A DNA stretch of 64,000 bases from Escherichia coli (GTDB lineage Bacteria; Pseudomonadota; Gammaproteobacteria; Enterobacterales; Enterobacteriaceae), in NCBI RefSeq assembly GCF_050920415.1, contig NZ_CP169309.1. One strand, written 5' to 3'. Shown here piece after piece: positions 3,784-30,600 of the stretch. A program made the position numbers and the translations under genes. Below the pieces are notes generated by a model. It was given only the letters and a program-made list of their open reading frames with translations. It did not search any database and was not told where the DNA came from. The first letter of the stretch is position 1, and the number at the start of each line of letters is the position of its first letter.

Positions 3784-4498
3784 GTTAATAAATGGCAATG
3801 CTATCAAAATGACAAGCATTGAAATCGCTGAGTTGGTGGGTAAGCGTCAAGACAATGTGAAACGTACCATCGAAACGCTGGCTAAAAATGGTGTTATCCG
3901 GCTTCCTCAAATTGAGGTTTCCGAAAGAATCAATAACTTAGGGTTCAATGTTCAGTACGAGCATTACGTCTTCGAAGGCGAACAAGGTAAGCGAGACAGT
4001 ATTGTCGTTGTTGCCCAGTTGTCGCCGGAATTCACCGCTCGTCTTGTTGACCGTTGGCGAGAGCTTGAGGAAACTGCGGTTAATATCCCCAAAACGCTAC
4101 CAGAAGCGTTGCGCCTTGCTGCTGATCTTGCTGAGCAGAAAATGCAACTGGAAAACCAGCTCGCAATTGCCGCACCTAAAGTTGAGTTTGCCGATCGCGT
4201 TGGCGAGGCCAGCGGAATTTTGATTGGAAACTTTGCAAAGGTTGTCGGTATTGGTCCAAACAAACTGTTTGCGTGGATGCGTGATCACAAAATCCTTATT
4301 GCTTCAGGTTCCCGGCGCAATGTGCCAATGCAGGAATATATGGATCGCGGCTATTTCACAGTGAAAGAAACAGCGGTCAACACAAATCACGGAATACAGA
4401 TATCGTTCACCACAAAAATCACCGGGCGTGGTCAACAGTGGCTGACCAGAAAGCTGCTCGATAACGGAATGCTGAAAGTAACAGGGGAGGCTGCTTAA
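3776..4498 (+). CDS. Rha-family phage regulatory protein with KilA-C/antirepressor-like C-terminal domain
   Basis: N-terminus MTSIEIAELVGKRQDNVKRTIETL resembles Phage_pRha domain; 240 aa in the position normally occupied by ninG. Confidence 0.6.
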   Translation: MNELINGNAIKMTSIEIAELVGKRQDNVKRTIETLAKNGVIRLPQIEVSERINNLGFNVQYEHYVFEGEQGKRDSIVVVAQLSPEFTARLVDRWRELEETAVNIPKTLPEALRLAADLAEQKMQLENQLAIAAPKVEFADRVGEASGILIGNFAKVVGIGPNKLFAWMRDHKILIASGSRRNVPMQEYMDRGYFTVKETAVNTNHGIQISFTTKITGRGQQWLTRKLLDNGMLKVTGEAA

Positions 4499-19331: not shown

Positions 19332-20738
19332 ATGGCTACTTGGCAAGGAACAAACGGCGGATTGTTGGCTGGTATCGGCGGCGTCAACTCAAACGCTCCG
19401 AGCGTAAATGACATCGGCAATACGCTTCAGCTTATCAGGCAGAACAATGATATTGAGCGTTCAGGCGCTAACAATGTTGGGCTGACTGCTTTGCAAGGCC
19501 TTTCAGGTATTGCGGGGGTGTTTCAGCAGGAAAAGCAGGCTCAGCGGCAGAAAGAATTTCAGCAGGCATACGCTAATGCTTATGCGTCTGGTGATCGCGG
19601 TGCTTTGCGTCAGTTGGCTACTCAATATCCAGACCAGATTGAATCCGTTCGTAAAGGCATGGGATTCATTGATGAAGACCAGCGTAATTCTATCGGCACC
19701 TTAGCGGCTGGCGCTCGCCTTGCGGCATCGTCTCCAGAAGCGATGCAATCATGGCTGCAAAACAACGCCAAGGAACTGACTCGCGTAGGTGTTGACCCTA
19801 ACAACGTTGCTCAGATGTATCAGCAGAATCCTTCAGGATTTGGTGAGTTTGTTGATCACCTTGGGATGGCTGCTCTTGGTCCGATTGATTACTTCAATGT
19901 TCAGGACAAGATGGCTGGTCGTGAAATTGACCGAGGCAGGCTGGCAGAGACAATCCGCAGCAATCAGGCTGGCGAGGCACTTCAGGCGAGAGGGCAAAAC
20001 CTTTCCTATCAGTCAGCAATGACTGGACACAATATCGCAGCGCAACGCTTGGCTCTGGATCAGCAAGAGTTCGGGTTTAAGATGCAGCAAGCGCAGGAAA
20101 AGGCTCAGCAGTTGATTAGCGAAGCACCTAAGCTGTCAGTAAACATGGAAAAAGGCATCGAGACGGCTGTAAACAATGCCACAGCATCATCAAACTCAGC
20201 CAATTCCATGAGTGCGCTTGCTCAACAGTTCAGAGCAGAAAAACCAACGACAGGTTTGTTCGGTAACGCACAGAACATGTTCGCAAAACTTACCGGAAGC
20301 GATACGACATTGCGTGATTTGCGCATTCGCCAAAATGCCCTTGTTAACAGTCAGGTTCTTAAATTCCTACCTCCCGGCCCAGCAACGGATAAAGACGTTG
20401 AGATCGTTCGACAGGGTGCGCCAACTGACATGGATAACCCTGAGACGGTCGCAAGATGGCTTGATGCAATGGCAAACCTTGAGCGACGAAACGCGCAGTT
20501 TAATGAGTTTAAAGCCGAGTGGATGAGCGCGAATGGCAACCCTGGACAATCGCGTAATGGCGGTCAGATATTGGGGTTGGATGTTAAAAAAGGTGAATCA
20601 TTGGGGAGTGCCGTTAAGCGGTATATGTCAATGAATACTGACGCAGCGCCAGCACAAGATTCGACACCTTCAGGAGAACCACGGAATCAGGTTGGATCAT
20701 ATACCTCAAAATCAGGCATTCAATTTACGGTGGAATGA
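19332..20738 (+). CDS. Ejection protein, gp20-like
   Basis: 468 aa; position. Confidence 0.75.
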   Translation: MATWQGTNGGLLAGIGGVNSNAPSVNDIGNTLQLIRQNNDIERSGANNVGLTALQGLSGIAGVFQQEKQAQRQKEFQQAYANAYASGDRGALRQLATQYPDQIESVRKGMGFIDEDQRNSIGTLAAGARLAASSPEAMQSWLQNNAKELTRVGVDPNNVAQMYQQNPSGFGEFVDHLGMAALGPIDYFNVQDKMAGREIDRGRLAETIRSNQAGEALQARGQNLSYQSAMTGHNIAAQRLALDQQEFGFKMQQAQEKAQQLISEAPKLSVNMEKGIETAVNNATASSNSANSMSALAQQFRAEKPTTGLFGNAQNMFAKLTGSDTTLRDLRIRQNALVNSQVLKFLPPGPATDKDVEIVRQGAPTDMDNPETVARWLDAMANLERRNAQFNEFKAEWMSANGNPGQSRNGGQILGLDVKKGESLGSAVKRYMSMNTDAAPAQDSTPSGEPRNQVGSYTSKSGIQFTVE

Positions 20739-22741
20739 TGAAAGTAACTGCAAACGGTAAGACATTTACCTTCCCTGATGGTACGAGCACGGAAGATATT
20801 GGCACCGCCATTGATGAGTATTTTGCTGGTCAGTCAGCACCAACACAACAAGGTGTTCAGCAATCGCCAGCAGACAACTCACTTGCATCAGGATATGCAC
20901 AGCTTGCCACTCAGCAGAAGGAAGGACTAGATCGCTCTGCTGAGCAAGGGGCTGTTTTAGGTGCTGCAATGCGCGATGCCGTTACCGGTGAAAGCCGAAT
21001 GACACCAGAAATGGAGAGACTGCAAAATGTTGGGTCTGCTCCAGAGCTTAATAGCTTAAGCACTGATGCGCTGCGTGCTGGATTGGGGCAGCTATTTGGT
21101 TCCGACGCTTCACAGGAGAAAATACTGCAAAGTATTGGCGGGAAAATCCGGAAGGATGAGAAGGGAAATTCCATAGTCACCCTTCCTTCAGGGGAATATG
21201 CACTTAACAAGCCTGGTTTGTCACCGCAGGATATAACGTCATTCTTGGCAAATGCTCTTGCATTCACTCCAGCAGGTAGAGCTGCGTCTGTTGTAGGTGC
21301 AACACTAAAATCAGGCGCTACTGATTTAGCTTTACAGGGTGCCACTAAGATCGCTGGCGGTGAGAATGTTAATCCAGTTCAAACTGCAATTTCTGCTGGT
21401 CTTGGTGGGGTACTGAAGGGTGTAGAAAACACCGCAAGCGCAGTGTCTCGTTCTGCTATGGGTAAGATTGCTCCTGAAAAACAAGCTCAGATTGACTTTG
21501 CCAAGCAGAACAACTTGCCACTGATGACAACAGATCTTGTGGAACCGGGAACAAATATTGGTAAGCAAGCACGAGCTATGGCTGAGCGAATCCCAATAGC
21601 CGGAACAGGTGGGATAAGAAATGCACAGCAAAAGGCCAGGGAAGATTTAGTTAGAACTTTTAGCGATAATGTTGGTGGAATATCTGACGCACAACTTTAC
21701 CAATCAGCTACTCGTGGTCAGCAGCAATTTATTCAGGCTGCTGGCAAGCGGTACGACAGGATCATCAGTTTGATGGGGGATACTCCTGTTGACATCACTG
21801 GAACAGTGAAAGCAATTGATGAGCAGATTTCCAAGTTAACTCGCCCAGGAGTATCGCAAGATCGCTCAGCTGTTTCTGTCCTTCAACAGTTTAGAAATGA
21901 CATCACCAGCGGTCCAAATAACCTGCAATTAGCTAGAGAAAACCGTACAAACTTACGTAAGCGCTTTATGGCAGCACCTGACGAGGTCGATAGAGATACG
22001 CTGGAGAAAGCTGCGCAGTCTGTTTATAACGCATACACAACAGACATGAAAAAAGCGGTTGGCGCAAAACTAGGTGCGAAGGAAGCGCAAAACATGTCGC
22101 GTGTTGATCGTTCTTGGGCAAAGTTCAACGACATGATGAGCAATACACGTGTCCAAAAAGCTATTCAGAGTGGTAAAACAACGCCAGAAGATGTCACTAA
22201 ACTAGTATTCAGCCAAAGCCCAGCGGAAAGGGCGCAACTTTATCGATTGCTTGATGATAGTGGGCGTCAAAATGCTAGAGCAGCACTTGTTCAGCGTGCA
22301 ATGGATAAGGCGACAAGCGATTCAGGAAAGCTTAGCGTTGAGAAGTTTATTAATGAAATGAAAAGGAATCGGAAGCAGGCTGAGACGTTCTTCAGAGGAG
22401 AGCATGGGAAACAGCTTGATGGGATAATGAAATATCTTGATTCCACTAGACAGGCAGCTACTGCTGCCGCAAGCCCACTAACAGGGCAAATGGTAGCTGG
22501 TCCAGCAGCGCTGATAACAGCTCTTGCGTCTGTTACAAATCCAATGTTTGCAAAAGTTGCGGCAGTTGGAGCTGGTATCGGTATGGCTGGCAGGGGCTAT
22601 GAGTCACGCGCGATGAGGAACGCATTACTAAAGTTAGCAAACACGCCAAAAGGAAGTACTGCTTATGATAGAGCGATCAGACGGGTATCTGAAACTCTTA
22701 CACCTCTAATTCAGGCTTCAAGTGAGAAAGCCCAGCAGTAA
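20735..22741 (+). CDS. Ejection protein, gp16-like
   Basis: 668 aa; position. Confidence 0.75.
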   Translation: MMKVTANGKTFTFPDGTSTEDIGTAIDEYFAGQSAPTQQGVQQSPADNSLASGYAQLATQQKEGLDRSAEQGAVLGAAMRDAVTGESRMTPEMERLQNVGSAPELNSLSTDALRAGLGQLFGSDASQEKILQSIGGKIRKDEKGNSIVTLPSGEYALNKPGLSPQDITSFLANALAFTPAGRAASVVGATLKSGATDLALQGATKIAGGENVNPVQTAISAGLGGVLKGVENTASAVSRSAMGKIAPEKQAQIDFAKQNNLPLMTTDLVEPGTNIGKQARAMAERIPIAGTGGIRNAQQKAREDLVRTFSDNVGGISDAQLYQSATRGQQQFIQAAGKRYDRIISLMGDTPVDITGTVKAIDEQISKLTRPGVSQDRSAVSVLQQFRNDITSGPNNLQLARENRTNLRKRFMAAPDEVDRDTLEKAAQSVYNAYTTDMKKAVGAKLGAKEAQNMSRVDRSWAKFNDMMSNTRVQKAIQSGKTTPEDVTKLVFSQSPAERAQLYRLLDDSGRQNARAALVQRAMDKATSDSGKLSVEKFINEMKRNRKQAETFFRGEHGKQLDGIMKYLDSTRQAATAAASPLTGQMVAGPAALITALASVTNPMFAKVAAVGAGIGMAGRGYESRAMRNALLKLANTPKGSTAYDRAIRRVSETLTPLIQASSEKAQQ

Positions 22742-22749
22742 AAAGTTGG

Positions 22750-23070
22750 TTAGCGGTTGATGGTTGCTTTTTTCGGGTCATACCATCTCGGCCATTCTTT
22801 CAGGAATGGGAATGAGTCGGGAGCGTGGTTCTTTTTGTACGATTTAAGCAGCCTTAACCGCTCTATCGCACACTCATAAACCTCTTGTTGCCCTGTAGTC
22901 ATCTCGGTCCATGAAAGGTGATCCATTGATAAGACAACGTTTTCAGCTTCTTTTATGAGGGCGTTTTTATTTCTCACCGCAGCAGCATGGCTGACAGAGC
23001 AATCCTGCCATATTCTTAAAAGCCAAATAGCTAAGCAGATAAAAAAAATGGTAGATAGCGATATATACAC
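22750..23070 (-). CDS. Hypothetical single-pass membrane protein (about 106 aa)
   Basis: GTG start 5 nt after AAGGAGG; N-terminal TM segment YISLSTIFFICLAIWLLRIW; longer 178-aa ORF in the track would overlap the + strand gene. Confidence 0.45.
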   Translation of the reverse strand: MYISLSTIFFICLAIWLLRIWQDCSVSHAAAVRNKNALIKEAENVVLSMDHLSWTEMTTGQQEVYECAIERLRLLKSYKKNHAPDSFPFLKEWPRWYDPKKATINR

Positions 23071-23100
23071 ACCAACCTCCTTAGTTTTGAGCAGGATACC

Positions 23101-23466
23101 ATGAAAAAAGTTAACATTGGAAACGTACCAAAGATGCTCGTACCGCTCTTTGAGAGCGGTACAATTGTGTTTTGTAGAGACTTTCCAGAATGGCAACGCC
23201 TGCATCAAAAACTTGGCGTTGACGTGCATGACTCGGACGCCAACGGAGCGTCTCATACAATGAGTAGCGAGAATGGTGTTTTGCATGTGATAGGCGTGTT
23301 CAATGGCAAACTATCTACTATTGCCCATGAGTGCGCTCACATGGCATTCGATATCTGCTCAAGGGTAGGTGTTGATGTTGAACCAGGAAGAGCCAACGAG
23401 ACTTACTGCTACTTAATGAGCAGGCTTGTTGAGTTCTGCGAGCGACATATCAAAAAGCCGGAGTGA
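23101..23466 (+). CDS. Putative zinc metallopeptidase (HExxH motif; ImmA/IrrE- or SprT-like)
   Basis: 121 aa; HECAH motif at residues 76-80. Confidence 0.45.
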   Translation: MKKVNIGNVPKMLVPLFESGTIVFCRDFPEWQRLHQKLGVDVHDSDANGASHTMSSENGVLHVIGVFNGKLSTIAHECAHMAFDICSRVGVDVEPGRANETYCYLMSRLVEFCERHIKKPE

Positions 23467-23479
23467 CCCGGCTTGATTA

Positions 23480-23659
23480 TTACTTTTTGCTGTCTGGAGT
23501 TCGCTTATCCAATACCCAGCCATGACCTGGCTTTGTTGTTGGTGGAAGCCTTTCGTTGTCCTTGACGGTGGCAAAATTGTCTTTCTTACCGCCGCGTGGG
23601 CCAACTTCTTGGTATATTCCGCCGTTTTTTCCTGTGTTTTCACCTGGTTTTTTCGCCAT
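23480..23659 (-). CDS. Hypothetical small Gly/Lys-rich protein (59 aa)
   Basis: ATG preceded by GAGG; MAKKPGENTGKNGGIYQEVGPRGGKKDNFATVKDNERLPPTTKPGHGWVLDKRTPDSKK. Confidence 0.45.
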   Translation of the reverse strand: MAKKPGENTGKNGGIYQEVGPRGGKKDNFATVKDNERLPPTTKPGHGWVLDKRTPDSKK

Positions 23660-23758
23660 GATATACCTCAACATACACCCGTTATTGGGCGATTAAATAT
23701 TGATCTCATTTTATAAGTAGTCAATATGGCCCAGGTAAATGCAAAAATTAACTCACCG

Positions 23759-24010
23759 TCAGGTGGTTTTTTTGTACAAATCCTTCAGCGTATCAAACAC
23801 CATCTTCTTAACAAGATCTGACTGCTCATCAGCGAGTCGTTCTGCATCGTCACGATATCCAGTCACAGGCGATGGTTTTGATAGAGCATCTTGGACGATT
23901 TGCAACAATTCTGAGTTCATTGATCTACCATTTGACTCTGCTCTGTATTTTAATTTTTCTCTTACTTCCAAAGGCATGCGGAAGTTAAAGTGCGGATCGT
24001 CTCTAGCCAT
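23759..24010 (-). CDS. mnt: Mnt repressor (ribbon-helix-helix)
   Basis: 83 aa; matches recalled P22 Mnt (MARDDPHFNFRMP.EVREKLK.RAE.NGRSMNSELLQIV..). Confidence 0.9.
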   Translation of the reverse strand: MARDDPHFNFRMPLEVREKLKYRAESNGRSMNSELLQIVQDALSKPSPVTGYRDDAERLADEQSDLVKKMVFDTLKDLYKKTT

Positions 24011-24033
24011 GCCATCACTCCAAGTTAGTATCT

Positions 24034-24291
24034 TTAACTTTCGTCTTTATTGTTGCCATACATGCATTTCAACTTCTCAACATCATGTTCAAGATCTATC
24101 AATCGTGATGCTATAGTTGCAAGGTCTAGTGCTTGAATGTGTTTATTTTTTTCGGTCCATGCTTCAAGTGCCGCGACCATCTCAGCATTTAATGAACGAG
24201 AATTAGCCTCAGCCAGTTCAATAAGACGTTCCTTTATCTCTACAGGAAGCCTCAGATTCACTTGAGGGTTTTTGTACTTACGATCAGACAT
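24034..24291 (-). CDS. Arc/Mnt-family ribbon-helix-helix regulator (second RHH protein)
   Basis: RHH N-terminus PQVNLRLPVEIKERLIELAEANSRSLNAEMV; directly upstream of mnt on the same strand. Confidence 0.7.
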   Translation of the reverse strand: MSDRKYKNPQVNLRLPVEIKERLIELAEANSRSLNAEMVAALEAWTEKNKHIQALDLATIASRLIDLEHDVEKLKCMYGNNKDES

Positions 24292-24396
24292 CGGCACATC
24301 CTGAATAATTTTTTACCACAGGATATGTAGGTATCTATTGACTATCAATGCGTACCTAAATACTATGTATGCGTACCACATACAACGGAGGATGCA

Positions 24397-24537
24397 ATGA
24401 AGGTAAAAACACTGCGTATGCCAGAGAAGTTAGAAAAAATCCTTGAAGAGAAAGCAAAGGAAGAGTGTCGCTCATTTAGCGCAGAAGTAATTAAACGGGT
24501 GATGGACAGCCTGAAGAGAGATGGGGTGGCGATATGA
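24397..24537 (+). CDS. arc: Arc-like repressor (46 aa RHH)
   Basis: MKVKTLRMPEKLEKILEEKAKEECRSFSAEVIKRVMDSLKRDG resembles P22 Arc as recalled; divergent from mnt. Confidence 0.7.
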   Translation: MKVKTLRMPEKLEKILEEKAKEECRSFSAEVIKRVMDSLKRDGVAI

Positions 24538-24778: not shown

Positions 24779-25348
24779 ATGTCAAGCTTAGCAAAGTCAA
24801 CTGTAAATTGCACTAATAGCATCATCATTTCTGACGTCAAGATTCATATGGATTCAGAGGGTCGTTACTCGCTTAATGACCTTCATGTAGCGTCTGGAAA
24901 GGAGGAAAAACATCAGCCAGCTTTCTTCATGCGTAGAAATGAAACTATTGAATTGATTAATGAAATTTTTAATTCTGCGGATATGCAGAATAAGAATCCC
25001 GTCATTTCTAAGAAAGGTAGATATGGTGGAACATACGTGTGCAAGGAGCTTGTTTACTCCTACGCCATGTGGATTAGCGCAGCATTTGCGCTGAAGGTTA
25101 TCCGCGCATATGACGCAATGGTTACTGCCACACAAGAGAGGAAGGCTATTGGCGGTAAAACTTCAGTAGCTGAACGCACGCCGCTACGCGATGCAGTAAA
25201 CATGCTGGTAGGAAAGAAAGGACTTCGCTATGACGATGCATACAATATGGTTCATCAGCGTTTTGGTATTGACAGCATTGATGAACTTTCAATTGAACAA
25301 ATCCCGCTGGCCGTAGAGTACATCCACAGGGTAGTGCTTGAAGGTGAG
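24779..25348 (+). pseudogene. ant: Antirepressor Ant, 5' part (KilA-N domain), interrupted by IS2
   Basis: KilA-N-like N-terminus; reading frame runs into IS2 left end, which supplies the stop (TAG at 25349-25351). Confidence 0.75.
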
Positions 25349-25439
25349 TAGACTGGCCCCCTGAATCTCCAGACAACCAGTATCACTTAAATAAGTGATA
25401 GTCTTAATACTAGTTTTTAGACTAGTCATTGGAGAACAG

Positions 25440-25805
25440 ATGATTGATGTCTTAGGGCCGGAGAAACGCAGACGGCGTACCACACAGGAAAAGATCGCAA
25501 TTGTTCAGCAGAGCTTTGAACCGGGGATGACGGTCTCCCTCGTTGCCCGGCAACATGGTGTAGCAGCCAGCCAGTTATTTCTCTGGCGTAAGCAATACCA
25601 GGAAGGAAGTCTTACTGCTGTCGCCGCCGGAGAACAGGTTGTTCCTGCCTCTGAACTTGCTGCCGCCATGAAGCAGATTAAAGAACTCCAGCGCCTGCTC
25701 GGCAAGAAAACGATGGAAAATGAACTCCTCAAAGAAGCCGTTGAATATGGACGGGCAAAAAAGTGGATAGCGCACGCGCCCTTATTGCCCGGGGATGGGG
25801 AGTAA
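25440..25805 (+). CDS. insC: IS2 transposase OrfA
   Basis: [41 protein letters not shown].. matches InsC as recalled. Confidence 0.9.
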
Positions 25806-26668
25806 GCTTAGTCAGCCGTTGTCTCCGGGTGTCGCGTGCGCAGTTGCACGTCATTCTCAGACGAACCGATGACTGGATGGATGGCCGCCGCAGTCGTCAC
25901 ACTGATGATACGGATGTGCTTCTCCGTATACACCATGTTATCGGAGAGCTGCCCACGTATGGTTATCGTCGGGTATGGGCGCTGCTTCGCAGACAGGCAG
26001 AACTTGATGGTATGCCTGCGATCAATGCCAAACGTGTTTACCGGATCATGCGCCAGAATGCGCTGTTGCTTGAGCGAAAACCTGCTGTACCGCCATCGAA
26101 ACGGGCACATACAGGCAGAGTGGCCGTGAAAGAAAGCAATCAGCGATGGTGCTCTGACGGGTTCGAGTTCTGCTGTGATAACGGAGAGAGACTGCGTGTC
26201 ACGTTCGCGCTGGACTGCTGTGATCGTGAGGCACTGCACTGGGCGGTGACTACTGGCGGCTTCAACAGTGAAACAGTACAGGACGTCATGCTGGGAGCGG
26301 TGGAACGCCGCTTCGGCGACGATCTTCCGTCGTCTCCAGTGGAGTGGCTGACGGATAATGGTTCATGCTACCGGGCTAATGAAACACGCCAGTTCGCCCG
26401 GATGTTGGGACTTGAACCGAAGAACACGGCGGTGCGGAGTCCGGAGAGTAACGGAATAGCAGAGAGCTTCGTGAAAACGATAAAGCGTGACTACATCAGT
26501 ATCATGCCCAAACCAGACGGGTTAACGGCAGCAAAGAACCTTGCAGAGGCGTTCGAGCATTATAACGAATGGCATCCGCATAGTGCGCTGGGTTATCGCT
26601 CGCCACGGGAATATCTGCGGCAGCGGGCTTGTAATGGGTTAAGTGATAACAGATGTCTGGAAATATAG
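25763..26668 (+). CDS. insD: IS2 transposase OrfB (overlaps orfA in -1 frame)
   Basis: 301 aa; DDE transposase matching InsD as recalled. Confidence 0.9.
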
Positions 26669-30525: not shown

Positions 30526-30600
30526 TGGTGTCCCCTGCAGGAATCGAACCTGCAATTAGCCCTTAGGAGGGGCTCGTTATATCCATTTAACTAAGAGGAC
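30526..30600 (-). tRNA. argW: tRNA-Arg (argW), prophage integration site
   Basis: Reverse complement reads GTCCTCTTAGTTAAATGGATATAACGAGCCCCTCCTAAGGGCTAATTGCAGGTTCGATTCCTGCAGGGGACACCA. Confidence 0.95.

Follow-up and report, generated by a model that had tools for sequence, protein, structure and literature searches.

Independently assorting genes in the left arm of the ant moron in a P22-like prophage of Escherichia coli

The stretch of Escherichia coli DNA analysed here, hereafter the window, consists of 64,000 nucleotides of contig NZ_CP169309.1 (assembly GCF_050920415.1) and carries a P22-like prophage lying beside tRNA-Arg(CCT). We have studied the interval which follows the gene 16-type ejection gene of this prophage (22750 to 24300), where a gene for a 106-residue membrane protein occupies the position held in phage P22 by the exclusion gene sieA (the sieA slot) and is followed by the HExxH gene hkcC, by the small gene orf59a and by two genes for Mnt-like ribbon-helix-helix (RHH) proteins. 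Taken together, the results indicate that this interval is likely to be the left arm of the 'ant moron', a hypervariable element of P22-like phages, composed of independently assorting mosaic units and not constituting one system.

The locus and the assortment of its genes

The initial annotation of this DNA had pointed out three open reading frames (ORFs) of 106, 121 and 59 residues, the first with one hydrophobic helix and the second with the motif HECAH at residues 76-80, and these are all confirmed, as is the divergent arrangement of the first two, whose starts are separated by a 30-bp spacer (23071..23100) which contains both ribosome-binding sites in a three-way alignment of the window, HK620 and P22. 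The statement that none of the genes had a confident family match turned out to be wrong for two of them. Indeed, the HExxH gene (23101..23466, plus strand) is hkcC, with 99.2% protein identity to its counterpart in phage HK620 and with the same neighbours, spacer and terminator as in HK620 and P22, and the 59-residue protein (23480..23659, minus strand) is identical to P22 orf59a in 58 of 59 residues. At the nucleotide level, positions 23067..24029 of the window are 96.7% identical to P22 13827..14789 (megablast), and the homology ends at 24029, 19 bp upstream of the gene at 23759..24010.

The region and two of the three genes had thus already been described, without an assigned function, as Villafane et al. 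(2008, PMC2629481) named the interval between genes 16 and 9 of P22-like phages the 'ant moron' and listed hkcC and 59a as unknown genes within it. The suggestion that the locus was apparently undescribed is consequently not maintained, hkcC, orf59a and mnt being named genes of a known element. The same study reports a rapid flux of the ant moron, with ten types among sixteen genomes, and places sieA within that of P22, while in phage BTP1 the exclusion antisense RNA STnc6030 is encoded in the same 16-9 interval (PMC7067206); these reports agree with the initial proposal that an exclusion or accessory locus follows gene 16. In the window the gene 16-type ejection (DNA transfer) protein is encoded at 20735..22741 on the plus strand (668 residues; PHROG 770, E 1e-177), and is a distinct allele, whose identity with the C-terminal half of P22 gp16 is just 32% (BLASTP). 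The tRNA-Arg(CCT) gene is found to the right of the prophage (30526..30600, minus strand), which fits the argW attachment site of the initial annotation. At least 80% of the 1651-bp combination of genes is found in no complete E. coli genome of the collection.

According to the initial annotation, the membrane protein, the HExxH protein and the Gly/Lys-rich 59-residue protein would work together under RHH control as a single module for exclusion, defence or antirepression. A membrane sensor with a protease effector would be one form of such a module. The tight divergent packing around a 30-bp spacer, the RHH genes next door and the location in an exclusion hotspot are in agreement with this model. 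However, the distribution of the genes among viral loci evidences a different situation. Among 25 IMG/VR loci which carry the 106-residue gene, hkcC is found beside it in 5 and is absent from this position in 20; the pair formed by ORF15 and ORF16 of phage N7 is found in 6 of the 25, and the remainder have different cargo, a SocA-like pair among it. Likewise, the 106-residue gene stands beside hkcC in 5 of 80 hkcC loci, hkcC being found with 11 other slot families, and phage N7 has the membrane gene with neither hkcC nor orf59a. In P22, hkcC, orf59a and mnt form one block whose partner is SieA, a protein which works alone (PMC10883804). Also, the mnt-orf59a transcript ends before hkcC, at a bidirectional terminator (23455..23474) which was found in a scan, is annotated in P22 (mnt terminator) and in HK620 (tORF59A), and overlaps the hkcC stop codon. 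With respect to RHH control, neither the P22 O_mnt operator nor ATGCGTACC repeats are found near the slot promoter; O_mnt (AGGTCCACGGTGGACCT) is matched nowhere in the window even when 3 mismatches are allowed, and the ATGCGTACC repeats are confined to the arc/mnt2 control region described below, so that this type of control of the cassette was rejected. Since the genes assort independently, a terminator intervenes and no operators are found near the slot promoter, a module of a membrane protein plus a peptidase under RHH control is not supported, and we regard a single system as highly improbable. The 106-residue gene and hkcC are encoded on opposite strands, and their expression probably follows different programmes.

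The sieA slot and its 106-residue occupant

From hkcC through the region of the PsieA promoter and the spacer, up to an AAGGAGG sequence and a GTG codon, the three-way alignment has an identical arrangement in the window, P22 and HK620, and immediately past this shared GTG the three encode unrelated membrane proteins. The counterpart of the putative P22 PsieA promoter is situated within the first hkcC codons (23101..23131, minus strand) and is identical to P22 13861..13891 (P22 annotation), and over the 85 bp upstream of the 106-residue gene just 2 positions differ from P22. In P22, sieA with only 85 bp of upstream sequence, 55 nt of which belong to hkcC, is sufficient for exclusion, and this exclusion amounts to seven orders of magnitude (PMC10883804). 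Loci without hkcC retain the spacer (L010, L022 and L028, around 3970..4000), which means that mosaic junctions fall on both sides of these 30 bp. At the other end of the slot, the motif GCCA[ATC]GGA[ATC]GG directly follows the stop codon in several unrelated slot families (L038-L112, just right of the gp16 stop), and the window has a weak version of it at 22742..22752, AAAGTTGG. Judging from their positions, the post-stop motif and the shared ribosome-binding site and GTG look like boundary sequences for cassette exchange.

We have carried out a survey of 80 IMG/VR loci carrying hkcC, to which the window, P22 and HK620 were added, by classing the gene divergent from hkcC. The comparison across related loci which the initial annotation had put forward, with a variable hotspot in mind, resulted in 12 slot families with no detectable similarity among each other, every one of which corresponds to a different PHROG of unknown function or to none. 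The most frequent are a 161-residue lipoprotein (F0, 18 loci), a 129-residue secreted protein (F1, 12 loci), SieA type A (F2, 11 loci), HkcB (F3, 9 loci), a 75-residue protein with two transmembrane (TM) helices (F4, 8 loci), a 109-residue TM plus coiled-coil protein (F5, 6 loci) and the 106-residue protein of the window (F6, 6 loci), and five rarer families (F7-F11) occur in 1-4 loci each. The same GTG is the start codon in 10 of the 12 families, a TM anchor, signal peptide or lipobox is present in 11 of the 12, and the ends of all slot genes fall within -4 to +57 bp of the gp16 stop. Five different families are found with one gp16 C-terminal cluster, which indicates ORF-for-ORF swaps between identical flanks, and a general obligate link between slot family and gp16 allele was rejected on the same ground. 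Such a link does hold for F6: the 106-residue gene is convergent with a gp16 homologue in all 25 IMG/VR loci, the window-type gp16 allele is the only one found alongside it in the loci examined, and the identities of the two proteins go along with each other (98-100% with 99-100% in 20 of 21 loci, 66% with approximately 87%, and 41% with 37%). As a separate observation, the same interval of a related prophage (L030, 2759..3632) contains a SocA/Panacea-like antitoxin-type gene overlapping a gene for a 164-residue partner, an identification made by reading the sequence, and this pair may be another sign of defence-type cargo collecting in the interval.

The 106-residue gene itself (22750..23070, minus strand; PHROG 10450, E 3e-52) starts with the GTG at 23070..23068, 5 nt after AAGGAGG. 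The same coding sequence is annotated in RefSeq and a 100% identical copy is present in phage N7, and the fact that length-conserved homologues are found down to 41% identity indicates that this is a real gene. The protein has one N-terminal hydrophobic helix, and its AlphaFold2 model (mean predicted local distance difference test score, pLDDT, 84) comprises a long helix at residues 5-48, which would correspond to the TM segment and an extension, a helix at 59-77 and a short helix at 99-104. As the positive charges come after the TM segment, an N-out, C-in topology is suggested, in which a helical domain of approximately 85 residues would probably be cytoplasmic.

Comparison with the known occupants of the slot shows similarities in arrangement and none in sequence. 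P22 SieA, of which types A-C are distinguished (Leavitt et al. 2024, PMC10883804), is encoded like the 106-residue protein convergently with gene 16 and against the late operon, behind the same upstream sequence, ribosome-binding site and GTG, and both are small inner-membrane proteins of P22-like prophages, the localization being a prediction in the case of the 106-residue protein. However, the two differ in length (106 versus 164 residues) and in the number of TM helices (one versus four or more), and the cytoplasmic motif FxRYPxEAxxFNK of SieA is absent from the 106-residue protein. No BLASTP alignment with P22 SieA (type A) was obtained at E <= 100, and SieA was never returned by tblastn or phmmer-type searches with the 106-residue protein; homology to SieA was rejected accordingly, the direct comparison covering type A. 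HkcB of HK620 (AF335538, 109 residues) has an N-terminal TM helix, a helical tail and the identical slot and start codon, whereas its sequence is unrelated (PHROG 5962 versus 10450), so that homology was rejected here as well.

Outside the P22-like phages, gp49 of phage mEp043 (98 residues; L008, 2932..3228) is a remote homologue with the same TM-plus-helical layout, and its gene starts 14 bp downstream of cI, in a rex-like slot for lysogen-expressed genes; a literature search on mEp043 gp49 returned nothing. Morons of the lambda rexAB and HK97 gp15 types are small prophage-expressed genes located in or beside phage operons which protect the lysogen, and the 106-residue family resembles them, through the mEp043 homologue after cI, by position and logic and not by homology. 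Its sequence and context suggest that the 106-residue protein is most likely a prophage-expressed inner-membrane moron, and a candidate exclusion or lysogenic-conversion factor. What would be new is an alternative to SieA which uses the SieA expression signals and is one of a dozen envelope cassettes.

hkcC and the genes to its right

The hkcC gene encodes a stand-alone protein of 121 residues, with the HExxH motif and a downstream Glu. It was named in the HK620 record of Clark et al. (2001, AF335538), in HK620 it is annotated as 'unknown', and in P22, where the reference records lack an annotation of it, the gene is intact, differing from that of the window by 6 synonymous changes and 1 non-synonymous change. 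A profile search of 1.84 billion representatives (50% clustering) resulted in 546 relatives at E <= 0.001, down to approximately 25% identity, and among the 150 matches listed these are mostly of about 110-140 residues. When 131 diverse homologues are aligned, no variation is seen at H76, E77 or H80, and E100, which follows H80 by 20 residues and thus has gluzincin spacing, is conserved in at least 90%. The C-terminal K-K-P (KKPE-stop, overlapped by the terminator) is kept even in relatives which are only 43% identical, which may reflect a constraint imposed by the terminator rather than by the protein.

The AlphaFold2 model of HkcC (pLDDT 89) has a small beta-sheet; a strand at residues 59-66 is followed by the helix that bears HExxH (71-88), and E100 is the first residue of another helix (100-116). 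This succession of beta-strand, HExxH helix and Glu helix within approximately 120 residues is that of minimal zincins such as SprT-like proteins (PF10263), ImmA/IrrE, DUF4157 and 3e11-type proteins. Using Foldseek against AFDB50, proteins of similar size were retrieved, the few named ones being IrrE/ImmA, SprT-like, DUF4157 and phage metallopeptidase, and the same search against the PDB was empty. Searching the PDB sequences with two hkcC profiles produced no significant match; the weak matches (E 0.08-1) were all metallopeptidases, and a weak thermolysin alignment covers both the HExxH and the Glu motif. SprT-like Pfam matches among the 131 relatives comprise 13 weak ones at E <= 0.1 and 1 at E 1.2e-4, the window protein itself has no Pfam match, SprT-like and M78 included, and PADLOC and NCBIfam returned no informative match for HkcC or for the 59-residue protein. 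Literature searches for hkcC and orf59a gave nothing relevant beyond the papers cited here. The fold model, invariant residues and metallopeptidase neighbours are in line with the initial view of a metallopeptidase-like protein and suggest that HkcC is a divergent minimal zincin-like protein outside any curated family; we consider it somewhat probable that it is an active metallopeptidase.

Concerning its expression, hkcC shares its strand with gene 16 and the tailspike gene and runs in the direction of the late operon. Upstream of the spacer the window, P22 and HK620 have three unrelated genes, which makes a conserved promoter of hkcC's own unlikely; a scan for promoter-like sites upstream of hkcC on the plus strand detected none, and a dedicated promoter was therefore rejected. 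The paralogue orf129 of phages L, ST64T and epsilon34 and a homologue in mEp044 are situated between the lysis genes and dec/terminase, in late operons, and a metagenomic relative overlaps a terminase gene. From the strand, the lack of a conservable promoter and the late-operon paralogues we infer that hkcC is expressed late. To the earlier records the present analysis thus adds that HExxH and the downstream Glu are conserved throughout the family, that the model is zincin-like and that paralogues are located in late operons, and together these results point to a conserved HExxH-plus-Glu family that is probably expressed late.

To the right of hkcC, orf59a (hkcD) encodes a YjzC-like small protein; the Pfam match to YjzC has E 0.0018, and homologues are named YjzC family and carry PF14168, a family without known function. 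In the initial annotation an extra RHH gene was placed upstream of mnt, with the labels swapped: the gene at 23759..24010 (minus strand, 83 residues) is the orthologue of P22 mnt, 78 of 83 residues being identical and the N-terminus with the DNA-reading residues (MARDDPHFNFRMP) showing no change as far as residue 13, and the additional gene is that at 24034..24297. This P22-type mnt has no promoter or operator of its own here, and its target may be the ant gene of P22-type phages entering the cell and not a site in its own prophage. The second Mnt-like gene (mnt2; minus strand, 87 residues; PHROG 795, Arc-like families) belongs to the local arc/ant module and is found with the same arc type in other prophages. 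It is separated by a divergent control region (24298..24396), with two ATGCGTACC repeats as candidate operators, from the gene of an Arc-like RHH protein of 46 residues (24397..24537, plus strand). The following antirepressor gene is present as its N-terminal 190 codons (24779..25351, plus strand; PHROG 2812, 129, 2127), being cut by an IS2 element (25395..26668, plus strand; orfA 25395..25805, orfB 25763..26668; NCBIfam IS2 TnpB, 725 bits versus a cut-off of 597), and because of this interruption after codon 190 the antirepression arm of the immI region is probably dead in this prophage. Overall, orf59a comes along with the P22-type mnt in one P22 block, and this mnt is now co-transcribed behind the second Mnt-like gene. 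The tandem of two Mnt-like RHH genes (23759..24297) is also present in two IMG/VR loci (L016 and L021).

Proposed roles, alternatives and significance

In the explanation that we favour, the 106-residue gene would be expressed leftward with the PsieA region, ribosome-binding site and GTG that also serve P22 sieA and HK620 hkcB; its product would be made in the lysogen and act at the envelope as a single-pass inner-membrane protein, possibly as a superinfection-exclusion factor hindering DNA delivery by P22-like phages, and perhaps by those with its own gp16 type. In turn, hkcC would be a separate gene with a minimal zinc-metallopeptidase-like product, read from late-operon transcripts in lytic growth. 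The part of this proposal in which the 106-residue protein excludes P22-like phages falls, in our estimate, slightly short of probable. Several points weigh against the explanation as a whole. The PsieA promoter is termed 'putative' in the literature; PADLOC, NCBIfam and Pfam have no match for the 106-residue protein; its linkage to the gp16 allele may result from nothing more than the two genes being neighbours; and, since the mEp043 homologue belongs to a siphovirus, the family may not act on P22-type ejection proteins. Late read-through expression of hkcC has to contend with a perfect 10-bp palindrome in codons 14-21 (VPLFESGT; 23140..23162), terminator-like on the plus strand, whose RNA hairpin (-19.9 kcal/mol, z-score -3.4) is followed by a U-rich tract and has a 9-bp stem in P22 and HK620. 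Read-through to the right could be attenuated by this palindrome, or a PsieA regulator could bind to it.

An alternative is a role of the 106-residue protein other than exclusion, for example in membrane physiology, stress tolerance or host colonisation. Such a prophage-expressed envelope moron would agree with the fact that a role is known for SieA alone among the 12 slot families, the others being PHROGs of unknown function, with the lack of PADLOC matches, and with the homologue in the rex-like slot of a siphovirus, where many kinds of morons occur. However, the expression platform is common to the 106-residue gene and sieA, the 16-9 interval houses two proven exclusion functions, and the gene always lies next to the gp16 allele and varies together with it. 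The latter is relevant as SieA-type exclusion blocks DNA injection by P22-like phages and its escape mutations map to gp16 and gp20 (PMC10883804). A non-exclusion role is on balance unlikely, though still to be taken seriously.

For hkcC, a part in the immI circuit as an ImmA/IrrE-type antirepressor protease, cleaving Mnt, Arc or a C2-type repressor, is very unlikely: no Pfam M78/ImmA match was obtained in any of the 131 family members, the nearest family being SprT-like, and the neighbours of hkcC are the slot gene and orf59a, with no adjacent helix-turn-helix partner. In addition, HK620 keeps hkcC despite a degenerate immI, and paralogues are found in lytic phages and in the late operons of phages which lack immI (phage L). 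The alternative that the ORF is not functional and is conserved only as a carrier of PsieA and the bidirectional terminator draws on the presence of these signals inside or at the ends of the ORF and on its missing annotation in the P22 reference records. This reading is nevertheless left with a practically negligible probability and appears already refuted at the level of sequence evolution, considering the excess of synonymous changes relative to P22, the retention of length, H-E-x-x-H and Glu among the 546 representatives, the confident fold prediction and the paralogues at unrelated sites.

Returning to the favoured explanation, a bolder extension of it can be outlined, which as a whole we consider rather unlikely. 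In this extension the sieA slot would be a dedicated cassette-exchange site, with a fixed promoter, ribosome-binding site and GTG in hkcC on one side and often a short conserved post-stop motif, next to the end of gene 16, on the other; of the at least a dozen unrelated envelope proteins exchanged there ORF for ORF, each could block DNA injection, the 106-residue protein being specific for its own gp16 type, and the hkcC product of P22 would act late as a metallopeptidase, on a substrate of the anti-host or anti-defence kind.

The present findings overturn no current views, the rapid flux of the region being already known. SieA is the sole slot occupant ever studied, and the survey adds eleven small envelope proteins behind the same expression signals, while the junctions at the exact start codon are a clean example of moron exchange. 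Also, the model phage P22 carries a conserved HExxH gene which is unannotated in its own reference records, and which belongs to a family of several hundred phage lineages without an assigned function. For the P22-like phages and their hosts, the slot families could be tested as a set of candidate factors excluding DNA delivery by podoviruses.

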